DNA of 32,000 nt from contig NC_010296.1 in NCBI RefSeq assembly GCF_000010625.1, positions 2,700,001 through 2,732,000 on the forward strand, read 5' to 3'. Within the stretch, counting starts at the first letter, position 1; each line of letters begins with the position of its first letter. The notes under the pieces were generated by a model that had not been told where the DNA came from, did not search any database, and saw only the letters and a program-made list of their open reading frames with translations. This DNA comes from Microcystis aeruginosa NIES-843 (lineage in GTDB: Bacteria; Cyanobacteriota; Cyanobacteriia; Cyanobacteriales; Microcystaceae). Position numbers and translations under genes: made by a program. Shown one piece after another: positions 5,779 to 21,449 of this stretch.

Positions 5779-6897
5779 TTAGATATGGGCAACGATCTCG
5801 CCGAAAGGAGCGAGAACCTGAACGGGTTGGGGTCGGATCGGCGCGCTCTCTACTGGTAAACGGGGAAACAACAGTTCGGCAGCCCGGTAGGCTTCCTCTA
5901 GATGGGGATAACCGGAGAGAATAAACGTCTCGATACCGAGATCTCGGTATTCGAGCAGACGGCGCGCTACCGTATCCGCATCCCCCACGAGAGCGGTTCC
6001 CGCTCCCCCGCGTACCAAACCCACCCCAGCCCAGAGATTTGGGCTAATTTCCAAGGCGGCGCGACTGCCGTTGTGCAATTGACTCATCCGCCGTTGCCCT
6101 TCCGAGTCCATGCGCGCGTAGGCGTTTTGGGCGGTGGCGATCGCTTCCTCGTCTACATAGCGGATCAATGTCTCCGCCGTCTCCCACGCTTCGCTGGCCG
6201 TTTCCCTGACGATAACGTGTAAACGAATGCCGAATCGGAGTGTCCGACCGCGGGCCTCGGCTAAACGGCGCACGGTGATGATTTTTTCGGCCACCGCGGA
6301 CGGGGGTTCGCCCCAGGTTAGATAGACATCGACGTGTTTAGCGGCGATCTCGTGGGCGATGGGCGAGGAGCCACCGAACCAAAGGGGTGGGTGGGGCTTC
6401 TGTACGGGGGGAAACAGGACTTTTCCTCCCTCGATCCGCAGGTAATCGCCTTGAAAGTCCGTGTTCGGTTTCGATAATAGTTGTCGCCACACCGTTAGAA
6501 ATTCATCGGTTAGACGGTAGCGATCATCATGGTTTAAATGTACGCCATCTCCCGCCAATTCCACTGGATCGCCTCCCGTGACGACGTTAATTAGTAAGCG
6601 CCCCTCGGAAAGGCGATCAAAAGTGGCCGCCATTCTCGCCGCCACCCCAGGAGAAACTAACCCCGGCCGCACCGCCACGAGAAAGCGCATCTGTCGCGTG
6701 TGCGTGACGAGGGTGGAAGCGACGATCCACGCGTCCTCGCAGGAACGCCCGGTCGGTAAAAGCGCACCCGTGTAGCCTAAATCGTCTACGGCACGCGCAA
6801 TCTGCAACATATATGCGAAAGTAACGCTTCTCCCGCCGATCGCCGTTCCCAGATAACGTCCGTCGCCGTGGGTCGGGATAAACCAGAGTAATTGCAT
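5779..6897 (-). CDS. ssuD: FMNH2-dependent alkanesulfonate monooxygenase
   Basis: It aligns by eye with E. coli SsuD along the N-terminus: [74 protein letters not shown]. An AAGGA Shine-Dalgarno lies ~12 nt upstream. Confidence 0.9.
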
Positions 6898-7042
6898 GGT
6901 CGGTATCCTTCGTGTAGAAATAATAACACATTAATTCTATCAAAATATTGTCTTTAAAAAAGTATCATCTGGAGGAAAATTTTTGTTACCATTTGCTCGG
7001 AATTTGACGGGTATAAATGGGGATAAAGTATATCAAAAACTT

Positions 7043-9061
7043 TTATAAAACTTGAGCGTACCGATTAAATTTTTCCTCTGGAAAATAACCATTAGAGAGT
7101 TGGCTCGAAAAAGAAATCTGATGGAAATGGTAATCTAGTTCGAGTAAATTATAGACTAGCCGTAAAAAATAATCGTCCATCCAAAAATCTACGTCAAATA
7201 ATGAGATACCGTATTGTCCATCTAACCTACGATTGAGGGTTTTTAATAGCCAAGACCATTGGGGTTTTAGGGTGGGATCGGTGTGGTTTCCAGAGGCAGG
7301 AGCGAAGAACTGAAATACCCGATCAGGACAAACCCATGTTACATCGTTTAACAACTTGATCGCTCTTGCGGAATCTGAATGAAACCAATGATTGGCGATT
7401 ACCAAGTCGTGTAGGTAAGCGATAACAAGTTTGGGGTTTTCTTTGAGAAACCGCGATCGACAAACAATGCCTCTAAGGGAAGGAATTCTTAAACCGAAAT
7501 TTTGCTCTAGGGGTAATTTTTTGGCTGAAACGTATTCTTGAAAAATAGAAGTAAAAGTATCACAACATACATAGGCATCTATTTGCTTTTTTCTAAAGCT
7601 CATACTTGCCGTATGTGGATCTTCATTAACCAAGTGACAATCTCGACTAATCTCCAGTCCGTACAGGTTAAAAAGAGTGATAATAAATCGATGCGCGTTG
7701 GAACCAAATAAGGTAGAAATACGCTTGCCTCTTAGTTCTGGGACGGTGGCGATTGGAGAGTCTTTAGGAAGCAGAATCCTCAGATCTTCACCGAAAATAT
7801 TATAAGAGGCAATCCCGATTAGTTTAGAACCGAAACTGAGATTGTTAAAAAACATAGTACCATTGTTTAAAAGAGAAATATCGTCTAAAATACAAATATC
7901 TAAATCTCCTCTTTTCATTTGTTGATTCATTTGTTCACCACAAGCGAATTCAACGATCTGTAAGGTAAAATTTCGATCGATCTCGATATTTTTCTGAAAA
8001 ATTGGTTTTTCGTTGGACTCTCGCTGTAGATCGAAAACATATTTAACTCCATAGCTGGCGATAAACTGTCCGATCGAATCCCGTTGAATTCCAACTCTGA
8101 GTATATTTTCCGTTGGCAAAGTATCGCTGGCAAAAATAAGATTCGGTTGCGGGGAAATGGCTAAATCATCCTGATCGAGGCGAAAACTTCTAACCAAACT
8201 TTCTCCTAATATTAATAGCTCGCTAAAATGAGGGACGTGCAGATAGACTCCATATTCGTTGACATCCTGTATAGGTATTATCGATGCTGGATAATTCAAG
8301 AGGGAATTAAATTGGCAAAAATCAGGCAGGATAGTTGATTTATGGCTTTTTTGCACAGAATCGAGAAGTTCTTGATAACTTTCAATGATTCGTACATCCC
8401 TTAGATAGTTTAATACAACTTGATTTTTACAAAGCTCTTGATAAATTTCATCTAAAAGAACCAAGTCAGTTGGGTTTATATCTGAGATTTTAATCAATTT
8501 TTTGCTAGGAAATAGATCATTCTTACCGAAAGAAATAAGTTGGAAGCGGTGGGTAGTTAGTCTAGTACAATGATGTTTATCTTTATAAGCGGAGAAACTG
8601 TTGAGCAGAATATCAAGGTTTTTGGGCGAGGATTCGGCCAATAAACCTTGAGCGGATAGGGAAATCTCTTGAATATTTCGACTTGGAAAGCAAAGCCGAA
8701 ATCGTCGCCAGTAATGTTTTAACCAGACTTCTAAAATTAAAGGGGTAGCACCGAGAATTAAGTCTTCTCCGTCGGCACTTAAGGTCAGCTGAAACTCTCG
8801 TTGAAGGGTTTCCACGGTTTCTATCACCTGAAAGGTTTCAGAAATTAGCTTTCTACCCTGATTGGTTAGTTTGATCGAGCCAGGGGAGCGATTAACCAGC
8901 AATACTCCAAAATAATCCTCTAATTGCTTGACTTTTTTGCTAATTAATGATTGACTATAGCCCAATTGATAGGCCGCTTTAGAAAAGCTACCAGAATCAT
9001 CGACCGTCTTGAGAATTTTCAGGTGATTTAGGGTAATGTCTTCCGAGGTAATTCGACTCAT
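7043..9061 (-). CDS. Oversized (672 aa) LysR-family regulator: HTH + LysR effector-binding domain + extra C-terminal SsuA/NMT1-like periplasmic-binding-type domain
   Basis: Residues 1-90 are a typical LysR wHTH (LNHLKILKTVDDSGSFSKAAYQLGYSQSLISKKVKQLEDYFGVLLVNR). Residues ~90-300 are LysR-substrate-like. Residues ~320-600 show the SsuA/TauA/NMT1 pattern (LRVGIQ..., MKRGDLDICILD, PELRGKRISTLFGSNAHRFIITLFNLYGLE..DCHLVNEDPHTASMSFRKKQIDAYVC). The start lies 3 nt after the upstream LLM stop. Confidence 0.8.
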   Translation of the reverse strand: MSRITSEDITLNHLKILKTVDDSGSFSKAAYQLGYSQSLISKKVKQLEDYFGVLLVNRSPGSIKLTNQGRKLISETFQVIETVETLQREFQLTLSADGEDLILGATPLILEVWLKHYWRRFRLCFPSRNIQEISLSAQGLLAESSPKNLDILLNSFSAYKDKHHCTRLTTHRFQLISFGKNDLFPSKKLIKISDINPTDLVLLDEIYQELCKNQVVLNYLRDVRIIESYQELLDSVQKSHKSTILPDFCQFNSLLNYPASIIPIQDVNEYGVYLHVPHFSELLILGESLVRSFRLDQDDLAISPQPNLIFASDTLPTENILRVGIQRDSIGQFIASYGVKYVFDLQRESNEKPIFQKNIEIDRNFTLQIVEFACGEQMNQQMKRGDLDICILDDISLLNNGTMFFNNLSFGSKLIGIASYNIFGEDLRILLPKDSPIATVPELRGKRISTLFGSNAHRFIITLFNLYGLEISRDCHLVNEDPHTASMSFRKKQIDAYVCCDTFTSIFQEYVSAKKLPLEQNFGLRIPSLRGIVCRSRFLKENPKLVIAYLHDLVIANHWFHSDSARAIKLLNDVTWVCPDRVFQFFAPASGNHTDPTLKPQWSWLLKTLNRRLDGQYGISLFDVDFWMDDYFLRLVYNLLELDYHFHQISFSSQLSNGYFPEEKFNRYAQVL

Positions 9062-9064
9062 AAT

Positions 9065-10114
9065 TCACCGAGAAATTAAAGGATAGGGGTGTGAGTATCG
9101 ATCGATCACCTGTTGATGAAAATAGAGAGCATCTTCCCGGGTGGATTCAAACTTGAAGATAATCAGGTCAACTCCGATAGATTCGTAGTCTCTCAAGCGA
9201 CGGATCACCGTCTGTGGATCACCGACAAATCGAGCCGAGAGGCCAAGATTTGCCTCGATCGTTTGACCGATATCTAGTTTATTGTGGGCTACTGCATTGG
9301 CATCGATTTGTTGTTGGAAATAACGAATTTTTCGAGTGTCGGCAGAGCGATAAATCTTGTCTAGTCTGGACTCGGCTTCGACCCTGGTAGGGCGGACAAT
9401 GGCGAAAGCGCTCATCGCTACTTGAATCTGCCGTTGATAGCGATCGCTCGCCCATCGTTTTACCTTCTCCACCAGCGCGGCCGTTTTTTCCACATCATCC
9501 GCATTAATAAAAAGATAATCCCCCAAACGAGCCGCTAGATCGATCGCTCGTTCCGATTCCCCCGCAATAAAAACGAGAGGAAGCGGTGTCGGTCGCTCGG
9601 CTAAAATGCCCTGGGTGATCGTGTAATATTTGCCCCGATAATTAAAATCGGCAGTCGTCCATAATCCCCGAATAATCTGAAGATATTCTTCTAATCTAGC
9701 GTAGCGATCGCCGTGGGAGAGCCAAACATCACCGTAGCTTTCCACTTCTAGTTGCCACCACCCCGCGATCCCGCTCAAACCGAACCGGCCTCCACCGGGT
9801 TGATTCTGGAGAGCGGCACTTAGCTTGGCCACCACTGCGGGCAATTTAAACCCCGGTTGTACGGCCGTGACGATTTTAATCTCTTGGGTCGCTAAACTCA
9901 CCGCGCCAGCCGTGAGCCAAGGGTCAGTTACGTCATGATCCGGCCCGTGTACCGCATTGAGATAGTGTTCGGGAATGTAGTAGAAATCATAGCCCACTCG
10001 ATCGGCTTGAACGGCCAACTCGACCAGATCGGAAATCGACCAATTTCTCTCCGGGTTAATCACTCGCAACCATCCACCACAAACGGGTGCCCAAATTCCA
10101 AACTGAAGCGGCAT
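9065..10114 (-). CDS. Luciferase-like (LLM-class) flavin-dependent monooxygenase, substrate unknown
   Basis: LLM hallmarks are present: YIPEHY, TAVQPGF..PAVVAKLSAAL, GRFGLSGIAGWW..E...YG, HGDRYARLEEYLQIIRGLWT. It is the first gene of the minus-strand sulfur operon. Confidence 0.8.
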   Translation of the reverse strand: MPLQFGIWAPVCGGWLRVINPERNWSISDLVELAVQADRVGYDFYYIPEHYLNAVHGPDHDVTDPWLTAGAVSLATQEIKIVTAVQPGFKLPAVVAKLSAALQNQPGGGRFGLSGIAGWWQLEVESYGDVWLSHGDRYARLEEYLQIIRGLWTTADFNYRGKYYTITQGILAERPTPLPLVFIAGESERAIDLAARLGDYLFINADDVEKTAALVEKVKRWASDRYQRQIQVAMSAFAIVRPTRVEAESRLDKIYRSADTRKIRYFQQQIDANAVAHNKLDIGQTIEANLGLSARFVGDPQTVIRRLRDYESIGVDLIIFKFESTREDALYFHQQVIDRYSHPYPLISR

Positions 10115-10628
10115 AGGTGTTTTCCAATACCCACGAGGGAGACGTGTTTTTTAGGAGCCATCACTCTATCATGTTCCTTCCCCAGAAGCGTTATTTTTCC
10201 TTATACCGAAATTCCTCTTGTCTATCACGATTTGGAATATCAGGTATTGAGGTTCGATTGGAGTACCCCTGGAAGACGCACCGTATTCCAAAATGGCATA
10301 GAAAAAGTCAATCGGGGTGTATCAAACTACGACGTCATCCTTGAGTAGTGATTACACTGAAAGGCAATCAACTATATTTCGGTCGAATTACAGTAGTTCT
10401 CGGCTCCAGGCTTGAGAGAGAGCGAGTTTTGACCCCGATATAGGTAACTCGAATCTTGCTAGAAACAGCATTCTAAAGACTTGAGTTAGGGTGCTTGGCG
10501 ATCGCCAAAAACGGGATCGCTCCTCCAGACGAACACGAAAGAGATCGTCCGAAATGACCGTGTACACTGGATTCTTGCGAACGGTGAAGCGGTCGAACCA
10601 ATAGTTTCCATCACGGAGTAACCGAATC
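10115..10628. promoter_or_regulatory. 514-bp divergent control region between the two sulfur operons
   Basis: The position lies between divergent start codons. It contains a 9-bp inverted repeat, tttggaata (10231-10239) and tattccaaa (10284-10292), and a HIP1 site. No promoter elements could be assigned with confidence. Confidence 0.4.
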
Positions 10629-11726
10629 ATGGTAGATATTAAGTTCGCTTACTGGGTTCCCAATGTTAGTGGCGGGTTAGTGGTGAGTAAAATCCCGCAA
10701 AACACCGATTGGACCTACGATTACAACGCTTGGCTGGCACAGACTGCCGAAGAAGTCGGGTTCGAGTACGCGTTAGCCCAAGCCCGATTCATCGCCAGCT
10801 ACGGCGCGGAGTATCAACTAGAGGCCTTTGCCACCGTCGCCGCCCTAGCCCCCGTAACCAAGAAAATCACCCTAATCGCCGCCGTCCATCCCGGTTTATG
10901 GCATCCCGGGGTCGTCGCCAAAATCGGCTCGACGATCGATTTCATTTCCAAAGGTCGTTTCGCCCTCAACATCGTCAGTGGCTGGTTCAAGGGTGAATTC
11001 ACCATCTATGGTGAACCTTGGCTCGATCACGATGAACGCTATCGACGCTCCGAGGAATTCATTCGCATCCTCAAGGGACTGTGGACAGAAGACGAATTCC
11101 ACTTCAAAGGGGATTTTTATCGCATCAACGGCGGTTGGGTCAAACCCCGCCCCGTTAATAATCATCCCCATCCCGAAATCTTTCAGGGGGGTAACTCCAA
11201 AGCCGCCCGACAGATGGCCGGTCGGGTATCGGACTGGTATTTCATGAACGGCAACTCGATCGAGGGAGTCCGCGAACAGATCGAGGAAGTTTCCGCCCTT
11301 GCCCGTCAAGCCAGCCGTAGTATCAAGTTCGGTCTCAACGCCTTTATCCTCGTCCGTGATACCGAAAAAGAAGCCCACGAGTTACTGCGGGAGATTATCG
11401 CCAAAGCCGACAAAGAGGCCGTGGAAGGATTTGGCGAAGCAGTCAAACAAGCGGGTTCCGCCACCAGTGAAAAAGTGGGAATGTGGGCCAACTCGAACTT
11501 TGAAGATCTAGTACAGTACAACGATGGATTCCGTACCGGACTGATCGGCACAAAAGAACAGGTAGCGGAAAAAATCCAGCAGTTTCACGCCGTGGGGGTC
11601 GATTTGATTCTCGGTGGTTTCCTGCACTATACGGACGATTTACCCGCCTTCGGTCGCGAGGTGATTCCGCTCGTGCGGCAACTGGAATCCCGTCGTTCCC
11701 CCAGAGAAGAGTTCGCCCTGGTTTAA
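10629..11726 (+). CDS. sfnG: FMNH2-dependent dimethylsulfone monooxygenase (SfnG-type LLM)
   Basis: There is strong N-terminal resemblance to Pseudomonas SfnG as I recall it: FAYWVPNVSGGLVVSKI, NIVSGWFKGEF...GEPWLDHDERYRRSEEFIR.LKG.W....F.F.GDFYR. Confidence 0.85.
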   Translation: MVDIKFAYWVPNVSGGLVVSKIPQNTDWTYDYNAWLAQTAEEVGFEYALAQARFIASYGAEYQLEAFATVAALAPVTKKITLIAAVHPGLWHPGVVAKIGSTIDFISKGRFALNIVSGWFKGEFTIYGEPWLDHDERYRRSEEFIRILKGLWTEDEFHFKGDFYRINGGWVKPRPVNNHPHPEIFQGGNSKAARQMAGRVSDWYFMNGNSIEGVREQIEEVSALARQASRSIKFGLNAFILVRDTEKEAHELLREIIAKADKEAVEGFGEAVKQAGSATSEKVGMWANSNFEDLVQYNDGFRTGLIGTKEQVAEKIQQFHAVGVDLILGGFLHYTDDLPAFGREVIPLVRQLESRRSPREEFALV

Positions 11727-11760: not shown

Positions 11761-13269
11761 ATGGAAGGGATTAGTCTCGCTCAGGCGGCTCCCCTTGGAC
11801 CGATCGAGGGAATTGTCACCCTGATCGCGTTAGGTCTGGCTATGTTGATTGTTTCCTACTACGCTAAGTGGAAACTGGTAAAAAACACCCACGATTTTGT
11901 GATTGCCGGTCGCAAGCTGGGTTTAGGATTCGGGATTGCCGGCTTGCTTTCCGTCTGGACTTGGGTGATCGGGATTTTACTGCCGATCGGGGTCACCTTT
12001 AAGTACGGATTATCGGGCTTATTTTGGTTTACCGTCCCCAATGGTGCGGCGGTCATTGCCGTGATTCCCTTTGCCAAAAAGTTACGGCGATTGATGCCCC
12101 ACGGTTATACCATCAGCGAGTTTATCTCCGCTCGTTACGCGGGAGCAAAATTGGCTCGCGTGGTCGTAGTCGCTGGTATCCTCTTCGGGGCGATCCAAAT
12201 TGTCACGGTGAATCTCAAGGGAGCATCCCTGATGGTGGCCACGATCTTCGGTCTTCCGGAGGGGGTAGTCGCAACCATCTCCTCGATCGTCATTCTCCTG
12301 TACATCAGTTTAGGGGGACTCTGGGCATCCATGGCTACTTCTACCTTGATGTGTTTGCTGATTATGGTTCCCTCTGTCCTGGTCACCACGGCGGTCTTAG
12401 GCCAGGTGGGAGGGGCGGAAGCCGTGTGGCAGACCGTACAGAGTCAGGGCGGCGAACTTCTTTCGGTGACGCGACCGGATGCCTTCCAGAATTTCGGCTT
12501 AACCTTCGCCCTCGCACTGATTACTGCCACGATCGCCGGACAGGAATTCTGGCAGGTGGCTTGGGGGATCAAAGAACGGGAATTAGGCAAAACCTTTTTC
12601 TGGGGTGGGGGACTCTACTATGTGGTCGCCCTCTGTCTAGGGGTGGTAGGGCTGGTGGGCATCGCGCTCAAGGTGGATCTGGCCCGGGATCTTGGTGGTG
12701 ATCCCGCCGCCTTGGGTCCTTTTTTGGTTTCCCATTTAGGTTTGCCCGATTGGGTGATCTACCTGTTCGTGATCATTGTGCTGTCGGCCTGCTATTCCAC
12801 CTGTGACGGCACATTGGCGGCGGTTAGTTCGGTTTCTGCGGTGGATGTGATCAAGCCCCTGTTCCCCGCTATTTCCGATCGCTCCCTCTTCGCTTGGACG
12901 CGGTTTTCGATGGTCTTAGCGGCGGGAATTTCGGTGGCGGTGGTGCTATCGGGAATCGATCTGGTGACGCTGGTACTGGGGACTTCCATCATCCGCGCCG
13001 CCGTTCTCGTGCCTCTGGTACTGTCGATCGTCTGGTCGCGAATGAATGCCACGGCCTTTACCGCCTGGACGATCATCGGTCTGATTGCCGGGGTTTTCGC
13101 CCTCGCCAAGTTCGGCGAGGAGATCGGTACCTATACGGTAGTCGCAGTCAGCACGATCGTCCCAATTGTGATTGCCTTGACCAATTCCCGACGCTTCGAT
13201 TACACCCAACTACGTCAGGCACAGGATCTATCCGAGATACCGGACACTTCTTCTGTCGCGCTGCGATAA
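11761..13269 (+). CDS. Sodium:solute symporter family (SSF) transporter
   Basis: This is a 502-aa polytopic protein with ~13 hydrophobic segments and the SSF-like N-terminal pattern (DFVIAGRKLGLGFGIAGLLSVWTW). An AAGGAG Shine-Dalgarno lies 8 nt upstream. Confidence 0.8.
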   Translation: MEGISLAQAAPLGPIEGIVTLIALGLAMLIVSYYAKWKLVKNTHDFVIAGRKLGLGFGIAGLLSVWTWVIGILLPIGVTFKYGLSGLFWFTVPNGAAVIAVIPFAKKLRRLMPHGYTISEFISARYAGAKLARVVVVAGILFGAIQIVTVNLKGASLMVATIFGLPEGVVATISSIVILLYISLGGLWASMATSTLMCLLIMVPSVLVTTAVLGQVGGAEAVWQTVQSQGGELLSVTRPDAFQNFGLTFALALITATIAGQEFWQVAWGIKERELGKTFFWGGGLYYVVALCLGVVGLVGIALKVDLARDLGGDPAALGPFLVSHLGLPDWVIYLFVIIVLSACYSTCDGTLAAVSSVSAVDVIKPLFPAISDRSLFAWTRFSMVLAAGISVAVVLSGIDLVTLVLGTSIIRAAVLVPLVLSIVWSRMNATAFTAWTIIGLIAGVFALAKFGEEIGTYTVVAVSTIVPIVIALTNSRRFDYTQLRQAQDLSEIPDTSSVALR

Positions 13270-13289: not shown

Positions 13290-13805
13290 ATGAATAGTCT
13301 CTTGCAGATGATACCGCCCTCCTTGCGGACTTGGGCGAAGCGGCTCGGCTATTTCCTGGGCGGCACGATGCTCACGGTTTTCTATGCCGGAGCGGTTCCC
13401 GCCCAAAGTCTCCCTAGTCGTCCCCTAACTCAAAATCCCTATTCCCCGACCACCATTATCGCCGGTGTTATTGCCGCTATCATCACGATTTTCTTTCTGC
13501 GGGGAATGTATCTCGTGTTGACCTACGCTTCGGCAACCTATGGACTGGAAGAGGAGGAAGAAGAGGGGAATCTAGAAGGGGGCCAGGAAAACAATGCCTT
13601 ACTCTATGGAGCCTTCGGTTGGATTATCGGTTCGGCTCTGATCATTACTTCCTACGGATTCAGCTGGAGGTTCTTGTATATCGGCCCGATCGTCTGTTTG
13701 CTCGGCCCTCTCGTTCCCATTTTCGCCATGAACCGCGATATCCAGAAATACCGGCAAGTTTTGGCCCGTAGGGCGAGATATCAGTCCTCGCGCTCTCTGT
13801 ATTAA
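13290..13805 (+). CDS. Small (~171 aa) membrane protein of unknown family, possible accessory subunit of the symporter
   Basis: The ATG at 13290 lies 21 nt after the symporter stop. The ORF-track entry 12894-13805 extends upstream only because the frame stays open inside the symporter gene. It has about four hydrophobic segments and an acidic loop (GLEEEEEEGNLEGGQEN). Confidence 0.5.
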   Translation: MNSLLQMIPPSLRTWAKRLGYFLGGTMLTVFYAGAVPAQSLPSRPLTQNPYSPTTIIAGVIAAIITIFFLRGMYLVLTYASATYGLEEEEEEGNLEGGQENNALLYGAFGWIIGSALIITSYGFSWRFLYIGPIVCLLGPLVPIFAMNRDIQKYRQVLARRARYQSSRSLY

Positions 13806-13845: not shown

Positions 13846-15060
13846 ATGACCACGTTAGTAAATGTTGCAACGGAACCGACCGCCCATCTGATTCAAGACG
13901 ATCAAGAAGCGATCGCTGTGGCCAAAGAACTGGCCGCAGAATTTCTCCAAGAGGATTCCCTCCGCGATCGCGAACGCCGTCTACCGGTGGAGGAGGTAAA
14001 AAAATTCTCGCGCAGCGGGCTATGGGGGATCATCGTTCCCAAGGAATACGGGGGTGCGGGCGTATCCTACGCCACCCTAGCGCAAGTGATCGCCATTATT
14101 GCCGAGGCGGATTCTAGTTTGGGACAGATTCCCCAGAATCACCTCTATATGGTGGAAGCGATCCGGCTCGACGGTACGGAGGAACAGAAGCGATTTTTCT
14201 TTGACCTGGTACTGCAAGGCAAACGGTTTGGGAACGCCTTCTCGGAGATCGGCACCAAGTCAGTGACGGACGTGCAAACCAAATTAACTCGATCGGGCGA
14301 TGGCTACGTTCTCAACGGACGCAAGTATTACTCCGCCGGCGCCCTGCTGGCCCATTGGATTCCCACGATCGCCGCCGATGAGAACGGCAATACGATCGTC
14401 GCCTTTGTGGAACGGGACGCGGAAGGCTTGACTCTGCTCGATGATTGGACGAGTTTCGGTCAACGCACCACCGCAAGCGGCACGACGATTCTCGAAAATG
14501 TCCTGGTGAAACCGGAACACGTCATCCCTCACTATCTAGCTTTTGAACGGGCGACCCCGATGGGTGCGGTGGCACAGATTATCCAAGCGGCGGTGGACGT
14601 GGGCATCGCCAAGGCCGCCCTGCGGGATACCCTGTATTTCGTCCGCAACCATACCCGTCCCTGGGTGGATAGTAACCAGGAGAAGGGTTTTGAAGATCCC
14701 CTGACTCTCTACAATCTGGGCAACGTGATCCTACAGATCCACGCCGCGGAAGCCCTACTACGGCGGGCCGGGGAATTTATCGACGCAGCCTATGAATCCG
14801 GGTTAGAGGAGGCGAAAGTAGTGGAATCGTCGATCGCCGTCGCCGAGGCCAAAGCGCTCGCCACGGAAGCCTCCCTACTGGCCACCAATAAACTCTTTGA
14901 ACTGGCCGGCACGAAGTCCACCCTAGAGGAATTTAACTACGATCGCCACTGGCGCAACGCCCGCGCCCACACCCTCCACGATCCGGTGCGCTGGAAATAC
15001 TATGCGATCGGCAATTACTTCCTCAACGGTGCCAACCCGCCCCGCCATCCTTGGCTATAA
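13846..15060 (+). CDS. SfnB/DszC-type acyl-CoA-dehydrogenase-fold flavin monooxygenase (sulfur acquisition oxidoreductase)
   Basis: Acyl-CoA-dehydrogenase-fold motifs are present: GLWGIIVPKEYGGAG, FSEIGT, YYSAGAL. The C-terminal DRHWRNARAHTLHDPVRWKY motif is typical of DszC/SfnB-like proteins. An AGGAG Shine-Dalgarno lies upstream. Confidence 0.8.
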   Translation: MTTLVNVATEPTAHLIQDDQEAIAVAKELAAEFLQEDSLRDRERRLPVEEVKKFSRSGLWGIIVPKEYGGAGVSYATLAQVIAIIAEADSSLGQIPQNHLYMVEAIRLDGTEEQKRFFFDLVLQGKRFGNAFSEIGTKSVTDVQTKLTRSGDGYVLNGRKYYSAGALLAHWIPTIAADENGNTIVAFVERDAEGLTLLDDWTSFGQRTTASGTTILENVLVKPEHVIPHYLAFERATPMGAVAQIIQAAVDVGIAKAALRDTLYFVRNHTRPWVDSNQEKGFEDPLTLYNLGNVILQIHAAEALLRRAGEFIDAAYESGLEEAKVVESSIAVAEAKALATEASLLATNKLFELAGTKSTLEEFNYDRHWRNARAHTLHDPVRWKYYAIGNYFLNGANPPRHPWL

Positions 15061-15138: not shown

Positions 15139-16185
15139 ATGAGTGTTGCCCATCCGCTCCAGAAACGGAATATCTGGAAAAATCAACCCTTTAAGGGACT
15201 CTTGTTCATCGGCATTATCGCTGTGGTCAGTCTGGTTTTTGAACTGATCTTCACGGGCCTATTCGCTCTAGATGTAAACGAAAAATTAGTTTATATCACC
15301 CTCTGTTTTGTCTGGTGGTGGCATCTGGGTTTTTCCCTAAATGGCTATCCGGGTTCTCGATTTTTTTCCCATCGCTTCGGACGGGGAACCGTTAATTTAG
15401 CGATCTTGCTGCTGTTGGTCTATCTGACTGGAGAAGCGTGGAAATTTATCTTCACCCCCGCCCGTCTCACCGATACCCCCGTAGGTTTGTGGGGACAAAC
15501 CGCGATTGTTGCCGCCTGTGCCAGTCTGTTCTTTTTCGATAACACGATCGTGGCTTCCGAAGAACTCCAAGACCGACATCCCACCAGTGGATTTCTCAAC
15601 ATCTTTTTTGCCGTTTTTATGGTCGCTCCCGCCCTCACTTTTCTACCGCAGCTCTGGGGATTAAAACCGTTCTATATTCCTTGGTACTGGTATCCCCTCT
15701 CCACGGTATTCGGTAGTTTTTTCGATCGCTGGCCGCTCGCTCAACTGGGCCTAACCATGCCGCGTCTGGGCTTTCGACCTACCGGGGCGGTATTATTTCT
15801 CACCCTCCTGATGGCGTTTTTTCTCCGGCTGGCGGGGATGGATTTATTCACCACGGCGACCGGGCCGACCTTCGCCGCCATCTGGACAACGGTGGGTTTG
15901 GGTTTACTCTGGCAATTCAATCTCTGGCCCTTTCAAGGACTTGCCCAACCGGCCAAGGGAATCATTACATCGGTGATTAGTTTGGTCATCTCGCTGATTC
16001 TTTACGCCGCAACGGAAGTCCTCTTCGGTCCGGCCAATATCCGACCGGGACTGTACTGGTGGTTCGATATTCTCTGGGTGCAGGTGTTTCTCATGGCCCC
16101 GGGATTGTACGACGGGATCGGACTCTGGCAAAGTCGCGCTGAGATAACCGCTGATCGCCCTGCCGAAGCCGTATCTCGTTCCTGA
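15139..16185 (+). CDS. Polytopic (8-9 TM), Trp-rich membrane protein of unknown family
   Basis: This is a 348-aa ORF with a GAGGA Shine-Dalgarno, tightly packed between the sfnB-like gene and ssuE. I recognise no family motif. Confidence 0.65.
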   Translation: MSVAHPLQKRNIWKNQPFKGLLFIGIIAVVSLVFELIFTGLFALDVNEKLVYITLCFVWWWHLGFSLNGYPGSRFFSHRFGRGTVNLAILLLLVYLTGEAWKFIFTPARLTDTPVGLWGQTAIVAACASLFFFDNTIVASEELQDRHPTSGFLNIFFAVFMVAPALTFLPQLWGLKPFYIPWYWYPLSTVFGSFFDRWPLAQLGLTMPRLGFRPTGAVLFLTLLMAFFLRLAGMDLFTTATGPTFAAIWTTVGLGLLWQFNLWPFQGLAQPAKGIITSVISLVISLILYAATEVLFGPANIRPGLYWWFDILWVQVFLMAPGLYDGIGLWQSRAEITADRPAEAVSRS

Positions 16186-16232: not shown

Positions 16233-16814
16233 ATGGCGAATATTCTCTCGATCGCTGGCAATCCCACCGCTCCTTCTAAAACCTACGGATTCGTTCAATA
16301 CGTCAACGAACTCCTAGAAAAAGAGGGATTTCATACCGATACGATCGCCGTGCGGGACTTCTCGCCGGAAGACCTCATCTACGGACGCTACGATAGTCCG
16401 GCCCTAGAACCGATAAAAGCTCTACTAGGACAGGCCGACGGGATTATCGTGGCCACCCCGATCTACAAGGCCGCCTACACCGGACTGCTGAAAGCTTTCT
16501 TGGATTTACTGCCGCAGGGGGCGTTCGCCAACAAAGTGGTACTGCCGATCGCCACTGGAGGCACGATCGCTCATCTACTGGCGATCGATTATGCCCTCAA
16601 GCCGGTTCTCTCGGAACTGAAGGCGCGTCACATTCTCGGCGGTATTTATGCGATCGATAAACAATTGCAATTCCAGGCCTCTGGCCAACTCCAACCCGAT
16701 GAGGAGATCGGGCAAAGAACCCAAGAGGCGGTACGGGATTTCGTCGTTGCGGTGAACCTACATCGAGCGGCCACGAAGGAAAAAACCCCTACCCCCCTGC
16801 CCGTACATACATAA
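16233..16814 (+). CDS. ssuE: NAD(P)H-dependent FMN reductase
   Basis: It aligns by eye with E. coli SsuE: F.PEDL.Y.R.DSPAL, QADG.IVATP.YKAAY.G.LK..LDLLP......KVVLP.ATGG..AHLLA.DYALKPVL. An AGGAG Shine-Dalgarno lies upstream. Confidence 0.9.
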   Translation: MANILSIAGNPTAPSKTYGFVQYVNELLEKEGFHTDTIAVRDFSPEDLIYGRYDSPALEPIKALLGQADGIIVATPIYKAAYTGLLKAFLDLLPQGAFANKVVLPIATGGTIAHLLAIDYALKPVLSELKARHILGGIYAIDKQLQFQASGQLQPDEEIGQRTQEAVRDFVVAVNLHRAATKEKTPTPLPVHT

Positions 16815-16851
16815 AAGTGTCAGCTTGTCAAGATTCCTTTGAACTATTTTT

Positions 16852-18138
16852 ATGAGCGAGCCTACCCTATCGATTGCCTCTTCCTCTCGAATCATCACCC
16901 TGGCGCGACGGAACCCGGTCGAACCGAGGTTTACCATGGTCGATCGGGCCCTCGATGCCCTACGATCTGGGCAAGCCATCGTCGTCGTGGACGATGAAAA
17001 ACGAGAGAACGAGGGGGATTTAATCTGCGCCGCCGAGTTTGCCACACCGACGATGATTAATTTCATGGCTACCCGGGCCCGGGGGTTGATCTGTCTGGCC
17101 ATGACCGGCGATCGCCTAGACGAATTGCAATTACCGCCGATGGTGGAGAAAAATGGCGATCACCATCAAACCGCTTTCACCGTCAGTATCGATGCGGCGC
17201 CGCACCACGGCGTTACTACGGGGATATCGGCGAGCGATCGCTCCCGCACCATCCAAGTGGCGCTTTCCCCCACCACTACCCCCGATGATCTCAGCCGTCC
17301 GGGGCATATTTTCCCGCTCCGAGCGCGAGCGGGTGGGGTTTTCGAGCGGGCAGGACATACCGAGGCGGCGGTGGATCTGGCTCGTTTAGCTGGACTCTAC
17401 CCCGCCGGAATAATCTGCGAGATCCAGAACCCCAACGGCTCGATGGCGCGTTTACCGGAGTTGATGAGCTACGCGGACGAGTACGGTCTACCGATTATCC
17501 GAATCACCGATCTGATCCGCTATCGCGAAGGGGTAGAATCCTCGGTATCGCGGGAAGCGATCGCCCGTCTGCCTACGGAATTCGGCGAATTTAATATCTA
17601 CGCCTATCGCGACCTCCTCGATGGTTCGGAAGCGACGGCGATCATCAAAGGCGATCCGGACAAATTCGGAGAGCGGACGACTCTGGTCCGAATTCATTCC
17701 CAGTGTTTTACCGGGGATGTTCTCGGTTCCTCCCGTTGTGATTGTCGCCAACAACTGCATATCGCCCTGAAATCGATCGAAACCGCCGGACAAGGGGTTG
17801 TGGTCTATCTTCCACAGGAGGGACGAGGTGTCGGTCTGATCAATAAGCTCAAGGCCTACTCCCTACAGGATCTCGGCCTAGATACGGTAGATGCCAACAG
17901 GAGGCTAGGATTCGAGGCGGACGGGCGTACCTATCGGCTGGGAGCGCATATTCTCAAGGATTTGGGGGTAGCCGATATCCGTTTACTAACTAATAATCCC
18001 CAAAAAGTTCAGGGTCTCCGAGATTGGGGGATCAACATTGTCGAGCGAATCCCTCTCGTCATGCCTCCAAACTACCACAATCAACAGTATTTGCTGACAA
18101 AGCGCGAAAAACTAGGGCATCTGTTGCCGTTTAGCTAG
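16852..18138 (+). CDS. ribBA: Bifunctional 3,4-dihydroxy-2-butanone-4-phosphate synthase / GTP cyclohydrolase II
   Basis: The RibB part has [15 protein letters not shown] and [13 protein letters not shown]. The RibA part has [23 protein letters not shown] (zinc Cys triad), [22 protein letters not shown] and LLTNNPQKV. An alternative start is the ATG at 16936. The TAG stop (18136-18138) overlaps the adjacent MITE terminus. Confidence 0.92.
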
Positions 18139-18351
18139 GGTTGGCTGAATAAATCTAAAAACCTTGTTGGGTAAAACTTTTAGACCTTTTGGCCATCAAA
18201 AAGTAATGGATAGGGGAGTGATCGGGGGAAAAATTCAGGGACTTTTTCCCTGAAAATTAGGTAATTGACCCCCTCAAAATCGGTAAAACCCTACACCCCA
18301 CACCCCACACCCTACACCCTGCCCCCACGAAAAACTTTTTGCCGCAAACCC
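18138..18351 (+). mobile_element. MITE copy A (~214 bp) with TA target-site duplication
   Basis: The terminal inverted repeats are GGGTTGGCTGAATAAA (left) and, on the reverse complement of the right end, GGGTTTGCGGCAAAAAG. TA flanks both ends (18136-18137, 18352-18353). Internally it has a CCCYACA-type C-rich tract. It is ~80% similar by eye to copy B in inverted orientation. Confidence 0.8.
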
Positions 18352-18630
18352 TAGCTAATCACTCCCCTTTTCTAGCGTAGGGGTCGGAAAAAGAGCAATG
18401 CCTGTTGGCAAAGCGGCGGAAGTTCTGCCCGTGTTCTCAAGATAGGACTCCTATTCTCCAGGCCTTAGGATTCTGCGGTTTTACCCTGGAATTCTGCTAC
18501 AGCACCGGCTTGGGATAACGAGACTTTCTCAATTGCTGCCGGAGATATGGGAATCGATCGAGCGCGGTTCCGAGGATTCGTCTGGCCAAAAAACACCGAC
18601 TATCTCTATTTTTTGGATGTGAGGATTTCG

Positions 18631-20196
18631 ATGGTTTCTGTCTCTTGTAATTCGTTATGGCGACCTTCTCTCCTACTGGGAAGCGTTTTCTTTGCCGTAC
18701 CCGCGTTCGCTCAAATCGACCCTTCGGGTTTACCGCTAACCGATATGTCGAAAAACCATCCCGATCCAGCGATGGCGCAACTCACTTCTGTGTCCCAACT
18801 TGCCGATGTTCCGCCGACGGGCTGGGCGTTCGAGGCACTGCGATCGTTAGTGGAACGCTATGGCTGTATTGTCGGCTATCCCGACCGCACCTATCGGGGC
18901 GACCGCGCCTTAACCCGTTGGGAATTTGCCGCCGGTTTGAATGCTTGTTTAAACTCGATCGAGCGATCGCTGCAAGCAGGGGTTTCGATCGCCCAAGGAG
19001 ATCTCGATACACTCAAGCGCCTTGCCCAGGAATTTCAGGCCGAGTTAGGGGCTTTAGGGGCGAGAGTGGATAACCTAGAAAACCAGGCTGCTTTCCTAGA
19101 AGACCATTCCTTTTCGACGACCACGAAACTACTGGGTGAGGCGATTTTCGTGGTCGCCAACGCCTTTCAAGGTGCGAGGGAGGGGAGCAATACCGTGTTT
19201 CAAGATCGCGTGCGTCTTCGGTTCGTCAGCAGTTTTACGGGCAAAGACCAGTTAAACGTAAGGTTAGATGCCGGTAATGCCCGACGATTTAATCTGGGGG
19301 ATGGGACTCCGGAAGCTACTCAATCCTTTAACCTAGTTCCCTCTCTAGACAATAATGTCAATATCGGTTGGCTCGCCTATTATTTTCCCATTGGCGAGCG
19401 CATTTCCGCCTATATTGCAGCGGTCAATGGTGTCACCTACGATTTTATCCCGACGCTGAACCCCTATCTCGATAGCGGTACGGGCGGCGGAAAAGCACTA
19501 ACCGTGTTTGCGTCCGCCAACCCCATTTACCAGATCGGTGGGGGTGCGGGAGGTGGCTTTAACTATCAACTGAGCGATCGCTGGATCGCCAGCTTGGGTT
19601 ATCTGGCCGGGGATCATGCCGCTCCCAATCCGGGTAGTGGTCTTTTTAATGGTCAATACGCTGCGATCGCCCAAATCGCTTGGCTCGATTCTCGATCGGG
19701 TTTCGGGATCACCTACGTCCACGCCTACCAAAATCGGGGAGATTTATTTGACATCGGCAGTAGTTTTGGTATTGTCGGCACTAGGCAGGCTAATAATCCT
19801 TTTGGCACCCCATTGATCAGTGATTCCTTCGGTGCGTCGGGGTTCTTTACCATCACGCCGAACTTGGCGATTAATGGTTTCCTGGGCTATACCAACTCTA
19901 GAAATCTCCAAGGCCACGGAAATGCTGACATTTGGTACTATAGTCTAGGTTTCGCCTTTCCCGATGTGGGCAAAGATGGCAATCTGGGCGGTCTCGTGGT
20001 TGGCGTTCAGCCCTATCAAGCCAATAATCCCACGGATGCCAAGGATTTACCTATCCATGTCGAGGCTTTTTACAAATATCAAATTAATGACAATATCGCC
20101 ATCACTCCTGGCTTATTTTGGCTGATCAACCCCGGTCAAAATAGTAATAATACCAGTGTTATTATCGGTACACTGAGAACCACATTTACCTTCTAG
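18631..20196 (+). CDS. Outer-membrane porin, SLH domain + OprB-like beta-barrel (cyanobacterial porin type)
   Basis: It has a signal peptide (MVSVSCNSLWRPSLLLGSVFFAVPAFAQ), an SLH motif (DVPPTGWAFEALRSLVERYGCIVGYPDRTYRGDRALTRWEFA), a coiled-coil linker, a Gly/aromatic-rich barrel and a terminal TFTF. I prefer the ATG at 18631 (GAGGA Shine-Dalgarno) to the 18547 start. Confidence 0.85.
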   Translation: MVSVSCNSLWRPSLLLGSVFFAVPAFAQIDPSGLPLTDMSKNHPDPAMAQLTSVSQLADVPPTGWAFEALRSLVERYGCIVGYPDRTYRGDRALTRWEFAAGLNACLNSIERSLQAGVSIAQGDLDTLKRLAQEFQAELGALGARVDNLENQAAFLEDHSFSTTTKLLGEAIFVVANAFQGAREGSNTVFQDRVRLRFVSSFTGKDQLNVRLDAGNARRFNLGDGTPEATQSFNLVPSLDNNVNIGWLAYYFPIGERISAYIAAVNGVTYDFIPTLNPYLDSGTGGGKALTVFASANPIYQIGGGAGGGFNYQLSDRWIASLGYLAGDHAAPNPGSGLFNGQYAAIAQIAWLDSRSGFGITYVHAYQNRGDLFDIGSSFGIVGTRQANNPFGTPLISDSFGASGFFTITPNLAINGFLGYTNSRNLQGHGNADIWYYSLGFAFPDVGKDGNLGGLVVGVQPYQANNPTDAKDLPIHVEAFYKYQINDNIAITPGLFWLINPGQNSNNTSVIIGTLRTTFTF

Positions 20197-20264
20197 CAAT
20201 CAACAAAATTTACCCCTATACCTTCCTGTTTAGGGGGATTCGATATATCTAAGGAATCTCGATC

Positions 20265-21449
20265 ATGTCAGTATCCCCTAGTCAGTCTGCCGATTATTAT
20301 CTATCTCTCGCGGTTTCTCTGGCATCGGAATTCGCCATCGATGCAGTGGAGCGAGACCATCAGGGTGGAACCCCGAAACTGGCGCGCGATCGCCTCCGCC
20401 AAAGTGGTCTTTTGACCTTATTGATTCCCCGAGAATACGGTGGTTCTGGCGAGAGTTGGATTACCTTATTTCGCATCGTTCGAGAGTTCGCCCAAGTCGA
20501 TAGCTCGATCGCTCATATTTTTTCCTACCATCATCTTGGGGTGATCGTTCCCCATCTTTTCGGGACGATCGAACAGAAGGAATACTACTACAAGGAAACC
20601 ATCCGACAGAATTGGTTTTGGGCGAATGCGTTAAATCCCTTGGATCGTCGGACAGCGATCGCTTCCGAGGGCGATATTTTCCGACTAGAAGGCAAGAAAA
20701 GCTTCTGTTCCGGTTCGTGGGATTCTGACATTTTACCCGTTACGGCGATCGATCAGGAGACGGGGAAAATATCGGTTCTTGTGGTTCCCACCCAGCGTGA
20801 GGGAGTAGAACTGCACGCCGATTGGGATAATATGGGTCAACGGCAAACCGATAGTGGTAGTGTTTCGTTTCATAATGTGGCGATTTACCCCCGCGAGTTT
20901 TTCGGTTCGCAAGCCTTTCCTGCGCCACCTTTCGCCACTTTCCGCGCCTGTTTAACCCAGTTGAATCTAGCCAATATCTACCTGGGGATTGCCCTGGGGG
21001 CTTTTGAGGCCGCACGACGGTACACGAGAGAGCAAACCCGTCCTTGGCTAACTGCCGGGGTCGAGCGAGCGACGGAAGCTCCCTATCTCCTCCATCGTTA
21101 CGGCAGTCTGTGGGTCGATTTAGAGGCGGCCAGGGGTTTGGTTGATCGAGCAACGGAAATTCTACAGGACGCGTGGGAGGAACAATGGGAGCTCACCGCA
21201 GAAAAGCGCGGTCGCTGTGCCGTGGCGATCGCAGTGGCCAAGGTGGCGGCGACACGGGTGGGATTAGAGGTGGTGAATCAAATGTTCGAGGTCATGGGGG
21301 CGAGGGCGACATCGAGTTCCTACGGGTTTGATCGCTACTGGCGGAATCTACGAACTTTTACCCTTCATGATCCTGTGGATTACAAAATTCGCGATCTGGG
21401 CAATTGGATTGTCAATGAAAAATTCCCGGAACCGAATTTTTATTCTTAA
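20265..21449 (+). CDS. Second DszC/SfnB-type acyl-CoA-dehydrogenase-fold flavin monooxygenase
   Basis: Motifs are LLTLLIPREYGGSG, DWDNMGQRQTDSGSVSF and the C-terminal DRYWRNLRTFTLHDPVDYK. It is a paralog of 13846-15060. An AAGGA Shine-Dalgarno lies upstream, 68 nt after the porin stop. Confidence 0.8.
   Translation: MSVSPSQSADYYLSLAVSLASEFAIDAVERDHQGGTPKLARDRLRQSGLLTLLIPREYGGSGESWITLFRIVREFAQVDSSIAHIFSYHHLGVIVPHLFGTIEQKEYYYKETIRQNWFWANALNPLDRRTAIASEGDIFRLEGKKSFCSGSWDSDILPVTAIDQETGKISVLVVPTQREGVELHADWDNMGQRQTDSGSVSFHNVAIYPREFFGSQAFPAPPFATFRACLTQLNLANIYLGIALGAFEAARRYTREQTRPWLTAGVERATEAPYLLHRYGSLWVDLEAARGLVDRATEILQDAWEEQWELTAEKRGRCAVAIAVAKVAATRVGLEVVNQMFEVMGARATSSSYGFDRYWRNLRTFTLHDPVDYKIRDLGNWIVNEKFPEPNFYS

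Follow-up and report, generated by a model that had tools for sequence, protein, structure and literature searches.

How does a cyanobacterium that carries enzymes for stripping sulfur from small sulfones and sulfonates bring these compounds into the cell when no genes of an ATP-binding cassette (ABC) importer accompany the enzyme genes? This question is raised by a gene island at positions 5779–21449 of a 32,000-nucleotide stretch of the Microcystis aeruginosa NIES-843 genome (NC_010296.1, positions 2,700,001–2,732,000 of the forward strand), referred to below as the window. The initial annotation, made from the letters of this DNA alone, described an organosulfur-scavenging island in which a symporter, membrane proteins of no recognised family and a porin take the place of the importer. 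Open reading frame (ORF) calling and profile searches recovered all the genes that it had named at the same coordinates and added two items, ribBA and a LysR-SsuA fusion regulator (Table 1). We consider it fairly likely that the island is a horizontally acquired, self-contained scavenger of small methylated sulfones and sulfonates, for which both an uptake route and a mode of regulation can be proposed.

Enzymes of the Predicted Desulfonation Route

Family calls were made with Pfam gathering scores and NCBIfam model cut-offs, and solved structures were matched through PDB sequences. The SsuD protein reaches 631 bits with the NCBIfam model NF001939 (cut-off 510) and 612 bits with TIGR03565 (cut-off 518); its closest solved relatives are MsuD (7jv3, 534 bits) and, slightly below it, Escherichia coli SsuD (517 bits). 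SfnG scores 633 bits with TIGR04021 (cut-off 383) and 469 bits with the solved SfnG of Pseudomonas fluorescens (8t0u). The flavin mononucleotide (FMN) reductase passes the SsuE model TIGR03567 (232 bits, cut-off 164) and is under the cut-off of the MsuE model (95.8 bits, cut-off 212). SfnB, a protein with the acyl-CoA-dehydrogenase (ACAD) fold, scores 644 bits with TIGR04022 (cut-off 431), and its top PDB match is DszC (204 bits).

The second ACAD-fold protein finds MsuC (6u76/6uug) as its top PDB match, ahead of DszC, with an E value of 6e-128 and 430 bits. It scores under the DszC and SfnB cut-offs of NCBIfam, and the MsuC call is based on the PDB match, without a curated-model cut-off. Both ACAD-fold proteins carry the motif DR[HY]WRN..R..TLHDPV and are 32% identical to each other. 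The 349-aa luciferase-like monooxygenase (LLM), designated here LLM349, is below all NCBIfam subfamily cut-offs; its top model is SfnG (206 bits, cut-off 383), its top PDB match is 8vw6 (182 bits), and it is 30% identical to the SfnG of the island. RibBA scores 576 bits with NF006803 (cut-off 569).

These results agree with the initial annotation in several respects. The SsuD-, SfnG-, SsuE- and SfnB-type genes that it listed all pass the NCBIfam cut-offs, and of its two DszC/SfnB-type ACAD-fold proteins with a shared motif, one is SfnB and the other is closest to MsuC. Those LLM and ACAD-fold enzymes that could be assigned fall by profile and PDB matches into sulfur-acquisition subfamilies, as had been supposed. 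The SSF-family symporter and the SLH-OprB porin are backed by Pfam scores above the cut-offs (PF00474, PF00395, and PF04966), and its 171-aa and 348-aa proteins of no recognised family indeed have no Pfam or NCBIfam match.

The conversion of dimethylsulfone (DMSO2) through methanesulfinate and methanesulfonate to sulfite has been described for Pseudomonas (PMC11588060). Since the matches of the SfnG, MsuC-like and SsuD/MsuD proteins to the solved P. fluorescens enzymes are strong, the island, by family assignment, encodes this whole route together with a reductase. The remaining two enzymes, SfnB and LLM349, are extra monooxygenases that may act upstream, on dimethyl sulfide (DMS) or dimethyl sulfoxide (DMSO), or on other sulfones. 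An upstream role is plausible for SfnB, because in Acinetobacter baylyi the oxidation of DMS to DMSO and DMSO2 is carried out by two-component oxygenases of the ACAD fold (PMC13352529). The ribBA gene is also present in related clusters of several phyla (L036, L037, L048, L061, L066, L079, and L087–L090), and this recurrence suggests an extra flavin supply for a pathway that depends on free reduced FMN (FMNH2).

Conservation of the Cassette in Cyanobacteria

A search of species-representative genomes with the 348-aa membrane protein yielded 45 loci, 44 of which were analysed for gene content. The sfnB gene was found in all 44, sfnG in 41, the 348-aa gene in 39, oprB in 38, and the msuC-like gene in 35; the regulator was present in 32–34 loci, LLM349 in 31, and the SSF and 171-aa genes together in 8–9. 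The gene order is constant: the regulator and LLM349 genes are divergent from sfnG, sfnB and the 348-aa gene, after which oprB and msuC follow. The ssuD, ssuE and ribBA genes vary between cassettes, and the Microcystis version is the fullest. Thus, the gene set that had been taken for a unit has a core that recurs in about 44 cyanobacterial species-level genomes, mostly of Nostoc, including symbionts of lichens and mosses. The named hosts besides Microcystis are Nostoc (many from lichens), Aliinostoc, Iningainema, Leptolyngbya, Egbenema, and an Oscillatoriales metagenome-assembled genome (MAG). The flanks of the Nostoc cassettes are unrelated housekeeping genes. The porin of the window, with 161 bits for PF04966 (cut-off 22.9) and 24.3 bits for PF00395 (cut-off 20.8), is a cyanobacterial SLH-OprB porin.

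One 4.7-kb contig (L012, CAZZZY010000557.1) bears sfnB, the 348-aa gene and oprB, the products of which are 63–82% identical to the window proteins. It is labelled as an uncultured Acetobacteraceae MAG; given the otherwise cyanobacterial distribution, the contig was probably misassigned when a lichen metagenome was binned.

Absence of an ABC Importer

No ORF with both a Walker A motif and an ABC signature was found in the whole 32-kb window, and the flanking ORFs scanned (the window includes 5.8 kb of left flank and 10.5 kb of right flank) contain no ABC, permease or substrate-binding protein (SBP) domain. The sole SsuA-like sequence of the window is a domain fused behind the LysR helix-turn-helix (HTH), and there are no ssuA, ssuB or ssuC genes. 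The lack of an ABC ATPase, permease and free SsuA, first noticed over ~15.7 kb, therefore extends to the entire window. Among related loci, an ABC ATPase lies within ±10 kb of the cassette in only two of 43, and these are MetN-like (with a NIL domain) or MalK-like. Since no sulfonate-type ABC importer was found within ±10 kb of the related loci, its absence is a property of the cassette and not an accident of this window.

According to the initial annotation, such genes normally sit with an ABC importer. This is true of ssuEADCB but not of the sfn/msu genes, which the island resembles most. The dimethylsulfone genes of Pseudomonas (the msuEDC and sfnFG operons) are not known to include a transporter gene. 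In Fig. 2 of PMC13352529, ssuABC is listed only alongside ssu. The membrane genes of the island are therefore better read as candidates for the missing sulfone uptake step than as replacements of SsuABC.

It is quite conceivable that charged sulfonates reach SsuD through a canonical SsuABC or TauABC system whose genes lie in another part of the genome, while the carriers of the island serve neutral sulfones and sulfoxides only. We know of no ABC system for the uptake of neutral sulfones or sulfoxides, and such a division of labour would suit the transporterless genes of Pseudomonas. It is also in line with a Phormidesmis locus (L066) whose SSF cassette adjoins a complete importer set, and with the reported enrichment of symbiotic Nostoc genomes in sulfonate-binding proteins (PMC5913679). 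However, no such importer is encoded in the 32-kb window, 41 of the 43 related loci are free of ABC ATPase genes within ±10 kb, and the ssuD, ssuE and ribBA genes of the island itself suggest a self-sufficient kit.

SSF Symporter and Its Putative Small Subunit

The SSF protein passes only the general Pfam model PF00474 (63.6 bits, cut-off 22.8). It is under every NCBIfam subfamily cut-off, with 38 bits for PanF (328), 37 bits for PutP (515), and 82 bits for the sss superfamily (184). The nearest solved protein is the urea-proton symporter DUR3, with an E value of 5.8e-13 for a partial match over residues ~41–231; urea, the DUR3 substrate, is a small neutral polar solute. Outside cyanobacteria, homologues of ~50% identity were found, some of which are automatically named ‘urea-proton symporter’ by their sources. 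In three non-cyanobacterial contexts, a small ORF of no family comes after the SSF gene, which is itself flanked by LLM monooxygenase genes. A Chthoniobacteraceae locus (L061) comprises an NtaA/DmoA-type LLM, the SSF protein, the small ORF, SfnG (481 bits), a sigma-54 activator, ribBA, and an ACAD-fold protein.

To count neighbours, metagenome contigs were scanned with the SSF alignment, and 80 loci were obtained. The small subunit gene adjoins the SSF gene in 76 of them and an LLM gene is nearby in 64, while an SsuE-type reductase, a LysR-SsuA regulator or ribBA is found in 8–10 loci each. The symporter is not a member of a characterised unrelated clade; it lies below all curated subfamily cut-offs, and its own clade shows the LLM linkage in 64/80 loci. 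Linkage with SfnG is observed only for SSF proteins at least 58% identical to that of the window; beyond the three Microcystis loci, these are L071, L072, L074, L078, L079, and L082 (58–68%). More distant SSF proteins (43–56%) are paired with a strongly conserved LLM of the NtaA/DmoA family, which is 73–84% identical across loci and has LadA, DmoA and DszA as its nearest solved relatives. Because SfnG occurs near only those SSF proteins that share at least 58% identity with the window protein, the latter is assigned by sequence to a subclade linked to SfnG, within a family of two-component symporters that is associated with flavin-dependent LLM monooxygenases.

The partner LLM of the distant SSF proteins, 438–440 aa in length, is encoded 3′ of the SSF and small subunit genes in L062, L064, L073, and L076–L145, from soil and other metagenomes. 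It is far more conserved than the SSF protein itself (73–84% versus 43–56% identity), and the pair can be regarded as a widespread enzyme–transporter module.

The 171-aa protein has no Pfam or NCBIfam match. Its predicted topology consists of a signal-like N-terminus, a transmembrane segment, an acidic loop and two further transmembrane segments, and in cassette loci its gene is always 3′ of the SSF gene. The protein is homologous to the ORFs that follow SSF genes in the Chthoniobacteraceae and other loci (hmmsearch E values from 2e-38 to 6e-10, 441 ORFs), with the shared motif ITxFYLRxMYLxL ... SYGxGxxFLYxGP. The SSF and 171-aa proteins thus form a module that occurs across phyla. There is also a second cyanobacterial layout, in which the SSF gene and the small subunit gene are accompanied by the LysR-SsuA regulator, an FMN reductase, a 440-aa LLM and sometimes ribBA and YeiH.

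Could the symporter and its small subunit import a non-sulfur solute, such as urea or a small amide, with the LLM linkage reflecting nitrogen or carbon catabolism and the membrane genes being passengers? The relationship to DUR3 and the automatic naming of some homologues point in this direction, as does the NtaA/DmoA family of the main LLM of the wider clade, which includes the non-sulfur enzymes LadA, NtaA, and riboflavin lyase; isochorismatase-type hydrolases and a nitrile hydratase are also encoded near some cassettes. We nevertheless regard this explanation as improbable. The DUR3 match (E 6e-13) covers only a part of the protein, the subclade of the window is specifically linked to SfnG, and the module co-occurs with SsuE-type reductases and with the SsuA-domain regulator and its operator. 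In addition, the two genes lie inside the sfnG-to-ribBA operon, with gaps of 20–40 bp.

Membrane Protein of 348 Amino Acids

For the 348-aa protein, no Pfam match at E values up to 0.01 and no NCBIfam match was found, and ten distant relatives gave no Pfam match at E values up to 0.1 save one sub-threshold match to DUF7541. A word-indexed search of 5.8 billion proteins revealed 35 clusters; those named by their sources are all cyanobacterial and 67–77% identical to the window protein. An exhaustive profile search among 1.84 billion representatives resulted in 27 matches at E values up to 0.001.

The first AlphaFold run, made with close homologues only, was unusable (pLDDT 48.9). With an alignment that included distant members, AlphaFold2 produced a model of ten long helices (pLDDT 88.8, pTM 0.87). 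A Foldseek comparison of this model with the PDB gave nothing with an E value <0.44 or a TM-score >0.3, and the family profile had no match among PDB sequences. In the family alignment, the loop motif WP-x5-8-QPxKG recurs before each odd helix. Self-comparison of the whole protein with hhalign on a shallow alignment gave a weak repeat signal only (E 0.01–0.07), and a five-way split of the deeper alignment was needed. The five segments then matched each other with P values of 4.9e-10 (R4–R5), 7.5e-9 (R1–R5), and 3.4e-7 (R2–R5), and four further pairs had P <1e-4 (seven pairs in total, from 4.9e-10 to 4.6e-5), while the reversed-sequence controls gave values of at least 0.1. Since the repeat-to-repeat P values are far below those of the controls, the protein is predicted to be composed of five tandem two-helix hairpins. 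A 291-aa protein of no family from the Chthoniobacteraceae locus was considered as a relative and ruled out (hhalign E 0.69).

The 348-aa gene directly follows sfnB in the Microcystis and Nostoc loci. A gene for an isochorismatase-family hydrolase lies between the two in L036 (5725–6549), L037 (9031–9954), and L048 (8978–9778), whose hosts are Oscillatoriales, Egbenema, and Leptolyngbya. The distant relatives of the protein (23–37% identity) are encoded in other catabolic clusters. In L056, a glyoxalase gene precedes and an ACAD-fold protein gene follows; in L057, the neighbours are an aminotransferase, a metallo-beta-lactamase-fold protein (MBL), an aldehyde dehydrogenase (ALDH), and YeiH. 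The relative in L058 is beside an aldehyde:ferredoxin oxidoreductase, those in L059 and L060 are beside an acetamidase/formamidase, that in L148 is beside an FMN reductase, an MBL and an M20 peptidase, and that in L149 is beside two LLMs, a CoA-transferase and a hydratase. Together with the isochorismatase genes, the acetamidase/formamidase neighbours may indicate that small amide-like substrates are involved.

Where the SSF gene is missing, as in many Nostoc cassettes, no inner-membrane protein other than the 348-aa protein is conserved. Because of this and because its relatives occur in varied catabolic clusters, a solute uptake channel or permease is its most likely role, which is assigned tentatively.

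The main alternative, although rather doubtful, is that the 348-aa protein exports sulfite, methanesulfinate or formaldehyde, or has a role other than transport, and that the substrate enters through the SSF protein alone or by diffusion. Sulfite and formaldehyde are the products of SsuD/MsuD, and sulfite exporters of the TauE/SafE type accompany other desulfonation clusters. A YeiH-type protein (PF03601) is encoded in two related loci, and in Microcystis, which has both the SSF and the 348-aa protein, the two would be redundant if both were importers. Export is, however, difficult to reconcile with most Nostoc cassettes, where no SSF gene is present to bring in the substrate and the 348-aa protein is the sole conserved inner-membrane component. 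Furthermore, the clusters of the distant relatives (acetamidase; CoA-transferase and hydratase; aminotransferase and ALDH) yield neither sulfite nor formaldehyde, which suits uptake.

LysR-SsuA Regulator and Its Predicted Operator

The regulator matches the PF00126 HTH_1 domain at residues 11–70 (60.5 bits) and the SsuA family model TIGR01728 at residues 352–599, with 74.7 bits, which is under the whole-protein cut-off of 163.5. The SsuA-like proteins 3e4r and 2x26 of the PDB match residues 367–578. There is no signal peptide, and the SsuA-like part is a domain behind the HTH, not a free periplasmic protein. The family, whose Pfam architecture is HTH_1+NMT1_2+NMT1, comprises 114 clusters; those named by their sources are all cyanobacterial and are called only ‘LysR family transcriptional regulator’. 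From this architecture, we infer that the SsuA-like domain is a cytoplasmic sensor of a sulfonate or a related ligand.

The intergenic region between LLM349 and sfnG contains 10-mers of TATTCCAAAATGGAATA in 31/31 non-redundant loci. A single exact copy of the palindrome ATTCCA-N3-TGGAAT was found in each of 35 cassette loci, in every case upstream of sfnG; in L067, L085, and L147 the exact sequence precedes the SSF gene, which brings the total to 38 loci. The LysR-SsuA regulator is also encoded in L067 and L147, which have the other cassette layout, and L085 is too short to tell. The conserved palindrome contains the T-N11-A pattern of LysR-type transcriptional regulators (LTTRs). The palindrome TATTCCA-N3-TGGAATA accompanies the regulator in both gene layouts and is therefore probably the operator to which the LysR-SsuA protein binds. 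The window copy is separated from LLM349 by 170 bp and from sfnG by 329 bp, and a further half-site lies at 10233–10239.

The regulator gene has the lowest GC content at third codon positions (GC3) of the cassette in every host examined (0.25–0.41; orthologues L013–L037), the enzyme genes being 0.1–0.3 higher. In Microcystis, it has no HIP1 sites, and the rest of the island is HIP1-rich. The possibility that this low-GC gene (GC3 0.35) is a native Microcystis gene in a foreign island was rejected, since its GC3 is the lowest of the cassette in all hosts examined.

Origin of the Island

Contigs from MAGs of Microcystis novacekii and M. aeruginosa, as well as many metagenome contigs, match the island with 98–99% identity, which fits the bloom-type cyanobacterial host proposed earlier. 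The LLM349 sequence is that of the M. aeruginosa NIES-843 protein BAG02794.1, and the protein is also present in many other Microcystis strains. The GC3 of island genes is 0.51–0.66, whereas that of the native genes of the right flank is 0.31–0.44; the density of HIP1 sites is 1.13 per kb in the island versus 0.19 per kb in the right flank. A DDE transposase is encoded to the left of the island (3327–4754), and the sequence to its right differs among three Microcystis genomes. Given the foreign GC3 and HIP1 density, the transposase on the left and the variable right flank, the island is, judging by composition and context, an accessory, horizontally acquired element. SfnB is 90–93% and the SSF protein 87–88% identical to the counterparts in the Egbenema, Leptolyngbya and Oscillatoriales loci, and the donor was probably a cyanobacterium with a higher GC content.

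Proposed Mechanism

The following scheme can be proposed from the enzyme families and the conserved gene neighbourhood. The substrate would cross the outer membrane through the cassette’s own SLH-OprB porin, without the participation of an ABC importer, and would cross the inner membrane through a two-component symporter composed of the DUR3-like SSF protein and the three-helix small subunit. The 348-aa five-hairpin protein could provide a second inner-membrane path by letting small polar solutes through, either as a channel or as a permease. In the cytoplasm, SfnG would convert DMSO2 to methanesulfinate, and the MsuC-like ACAD-fold enzyme would convert the latter to methanesulfonate. SsuD/MsuD would then release sulfite using FMNH2 supplied by SsuE, and the dedicated RibBA would plausibly raise the flavin supply. 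Both divergent operons would be controlled by the LysR regulator, the SsuA-like domain of which would sense the ligand, with the protein binding the palindrome between the operons.

Several observations weigh against this scheme. The substrates of the SSF and 348-aa proteins, like their transport roles, are putative and deduced from gene neighbourhood; of the differently wired route from the outer membrane to the cytoplasm that had been put forward initially, the conserved gene wiring without an ABC importer has stood. The wider SSF clade is mostly tied to an LLM of the NtaA/DmoA family and not to SfnG (53/80 loci). In the Phormidesmis locus L066, the SSF cassette is beside a full set of SsuA-like (NMT1) SBP, permease and ATPase genes with another LLM, which means that SSF-type and ABC-type uptake can coexist. 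Finally, the copy of the palindrome in the window has one mismatch. A stronger version of the scheme holds that the 348-aa protein represents a new class of five-hairpin channels or permeases, that together with the SSF protein and its small subunit it takes up small neutral organosulfur compounds (DMSO2, DMSO), and that the LysR-SsuA protein is a one-component cytoplasmic sulfonate sensor in control; in this full form, it seems unlikely to us.

Gene Layout and Neighbouring Sequences

The features of the island are listed in Table 1. On the minus strand, the LLM349 and regulator genes are separated by 3 bp and the regulator and ssuD genes by 145 bp. In the plus-strand run from sfnG to ribBA, the intergenic gaps are 20–78 bp. 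The gap between ribBA and oprB is 408 bp, 214 bp of which are an insertion of a miniature inverted-repeat transposable element (MITE), and 68 bp separate oprB from the msuC-like gene. In an Rfam search over the full window (E values up to 1), all matches were at chance level and none was an FMN or SAM riboswitch, and a scan for promoter and terminator consensus sequences did no better than on shuffled sequence.

Table 1. Predicted features of the sulfur island; positions refer to the window.
Feature	Position	Strand	Remarks
ssuD/msuD	5779..6897	-	FMNH2-dependent alkanesulfonate (methanesulfonate) monooxygenase, last step, sulfite release; GC3 0.63
LysR-SsuA regulator, 672 aa	7043..9061	-	LysR HTH and C-terminal SsuA/NMT1-like domain
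LLM349, 349-aa LLM monooxygenase, SfnG/SsuD-related	9065..10114	-	First gene of the minus-strand operon; PF00296
Palindrome TATTCCAAAATGGCATA, LTTR-type T-N11-A box, probable operator	10284..10300		In the 514-bp divergent intergenic region
sfnG, dimethylsulfone monooxygenase (DMSO2 to methanesulfinate)	10629..11726	+	TIGR04021
SSF-family symporter, large subunit	11761..13269	+	PF00474
171-aa membrane protein, putative small subunit of the SSF symporter	13290..13805	+	Conserved adjacency to the SSF gene
sfnB, ACAD-fold (group D) flavin monooxygenase, SfnB family	13846..15060	+	TIGR04022
348-aa ten-helix membrane protein, five tandem helical hairpins, orphan family	15139..16185	+	Candidate solute channel or permease
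ssuE, NAD(P)H-dependent FMN reductase, FMNH2 supply	16233..16814	+	TIGR03567, PF03358
ribBA, bifunctional 3,4-dihydroxy-2-butanone 4-phosphate (DHBP) synthase/GTP cyclohydrolase II, first committed riboflavin steps	16852..18138	+	PF00926 and PF00925
SLH-OprB outer-membrane porin	18547..20196	+	PF04966 and PF00395
msuC-like ACAD-fold methanesulfinate monooxygenase (methanesulfinate to methanesulfonate)	20265..21449	+	Match to solved MsuC

The MITE-like element of ~214 bp (18139–18352) begins directly after the ribBA stop codon and has a TAGCTA target duplication and the terminal inverted repeats GGGTTGGC... and ...GCAAACCC. The site is empty in the Microcystis island copies L001, L005, L008, L011, and L044 and filled in L007. 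A second copy (21928–22107) is located 3′ of the msuC-like gene in inverted orientation with 84% complementarity, so that the two copies bracket oprB and msuC.

Several genes outside the island can also be noted. At 14–3073 (+), a 1019-aa protein with an animal-haem-peroxidase domain and RTX calcium-binding repeats is encoded (GC 0.59, GC3 0.73, no HIP1 sites); this gene is foreign by its composition and distinct from the island, from which the DDE transposase separates it. On the right side, the SucC-like protein encoded at 22176–23360 (-) shows to Pfam the ATP-grasp part only (PF08442), with no ligase-CoA domain in its C-terminal half. The gene at 23421–24641 (-), which encodes a 406-aa membrane protein with C-terminal zinc ribbons and has a GC of 0.27 and a GC3 of 0.18, looks like another foreign insertion.

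Significance and Comparison with Known Systems

No paper on this unit was found in the searchable literature, in accordance with the earlier supposition that it had not been characterised, and nothing relevant was found there on sfnG or dimethylsulfone genes in cyanobacteria or Microcystis, on a dimethylsulfone symporter, or on a described transporter for dimethylsulfone or DMSO. The sfn/msu/ssu enzymology is known. New are the wiring of the cassette with a dedicated porin, the two-component SSF clade, the orphan five-hairpin protein, the LysR-SsuA regulator with its predicted operator, and the fact that cyanobacteria possess the kit in full. The island and the cross-phylum module of SSF protein, small subunit and LLM are concrete candidates for the DMSO2/DMSO uptake step in sulfur cycling. 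The complete DMSO2-to-sulfite kit bears on the sulfur supply of Microcystis and Nostoc in sulfate-poor lakes and inside hosts. For Nostoc symbionts, the enrichment and induction of sulfonate transport and monooxygenase genes have been described in general terms, and a supply of organic sulfur by the hosts has been proposed (PMC5913679). The very rare 348-aa family, with its confident model without a structural match and its clear five-fold repeat, is a new family to study, and the LysR-SsuA regulator with its conserved predicted operator offers a ready-made system for studies of sulfonate sensing.

The closest known system is that of the Pseudomonas sfn/msu genes, whose four enzyme types (SfnG, MsuC, MsuD, and MsuE; PMC11588060, PMC8234197) are the same as those of the island. 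However, the island unites all the genes with ribBA, a porin, a symporter pair and the ten-helix protein, its host is a photoautotroph, and its reductase scores as SsuE, not MsuE. The sfn genes of P. putida DS1 are regulated by the sigma-54 activator SfnR; no sigma-54 activator is encoded in the window, which has the LysR-SsuA fusion instead, although such an activator is present in the related locus L061. With E. coli ssuEADCB, the island shares the SsuD and SsuE equivalogs but not ssuA, ssuB and ssuC. The DMS pathway of A. baylyi ADP1 (Dms1-3, MsuC, MsuD, SsuD, and MsuE) resembles the island in combining group D enzymes of the ACAD fold and group C enzymes of the TIM-barrel fold with one flavin reductase; the survey in which it is described covers mainly Pseudomonadota and does not mention cyanobacteria (PMC13352529).

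As for the membrane proteins, the symporter shares PF00474 with the SSF (SLC5-type) family, in which DUR3 is nearest, and a small membrane protein is encoded alongside it. Some members of this family need a small membrane subunit, namely ActP with YjcH, PanF with YhdT, and the VC_2705 family with DUF4212. Unlike these, the small subunit of the island matches no described family, and the clade is tied to LLM genes rather than to urea, acetate or pantothenate genes. The TehA/SLAC1 (TDT) channels have ten helices arranged as five hairpins, and the 348-aa protein likewise has ten predicted helices with a five-fold hairpin repeat. This resemblance is no more than a lead, and membership in that family is unsupported, given the lack of a Pfam match and the Foldseek comparison with TehA (E 0.76–1.2, TM-score ~0.17). 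In contrast to TehA/SLAC1, the repeats of the 348-aa family are linked by the WP-x5-8-QPxKG motif, which is particular to this family.

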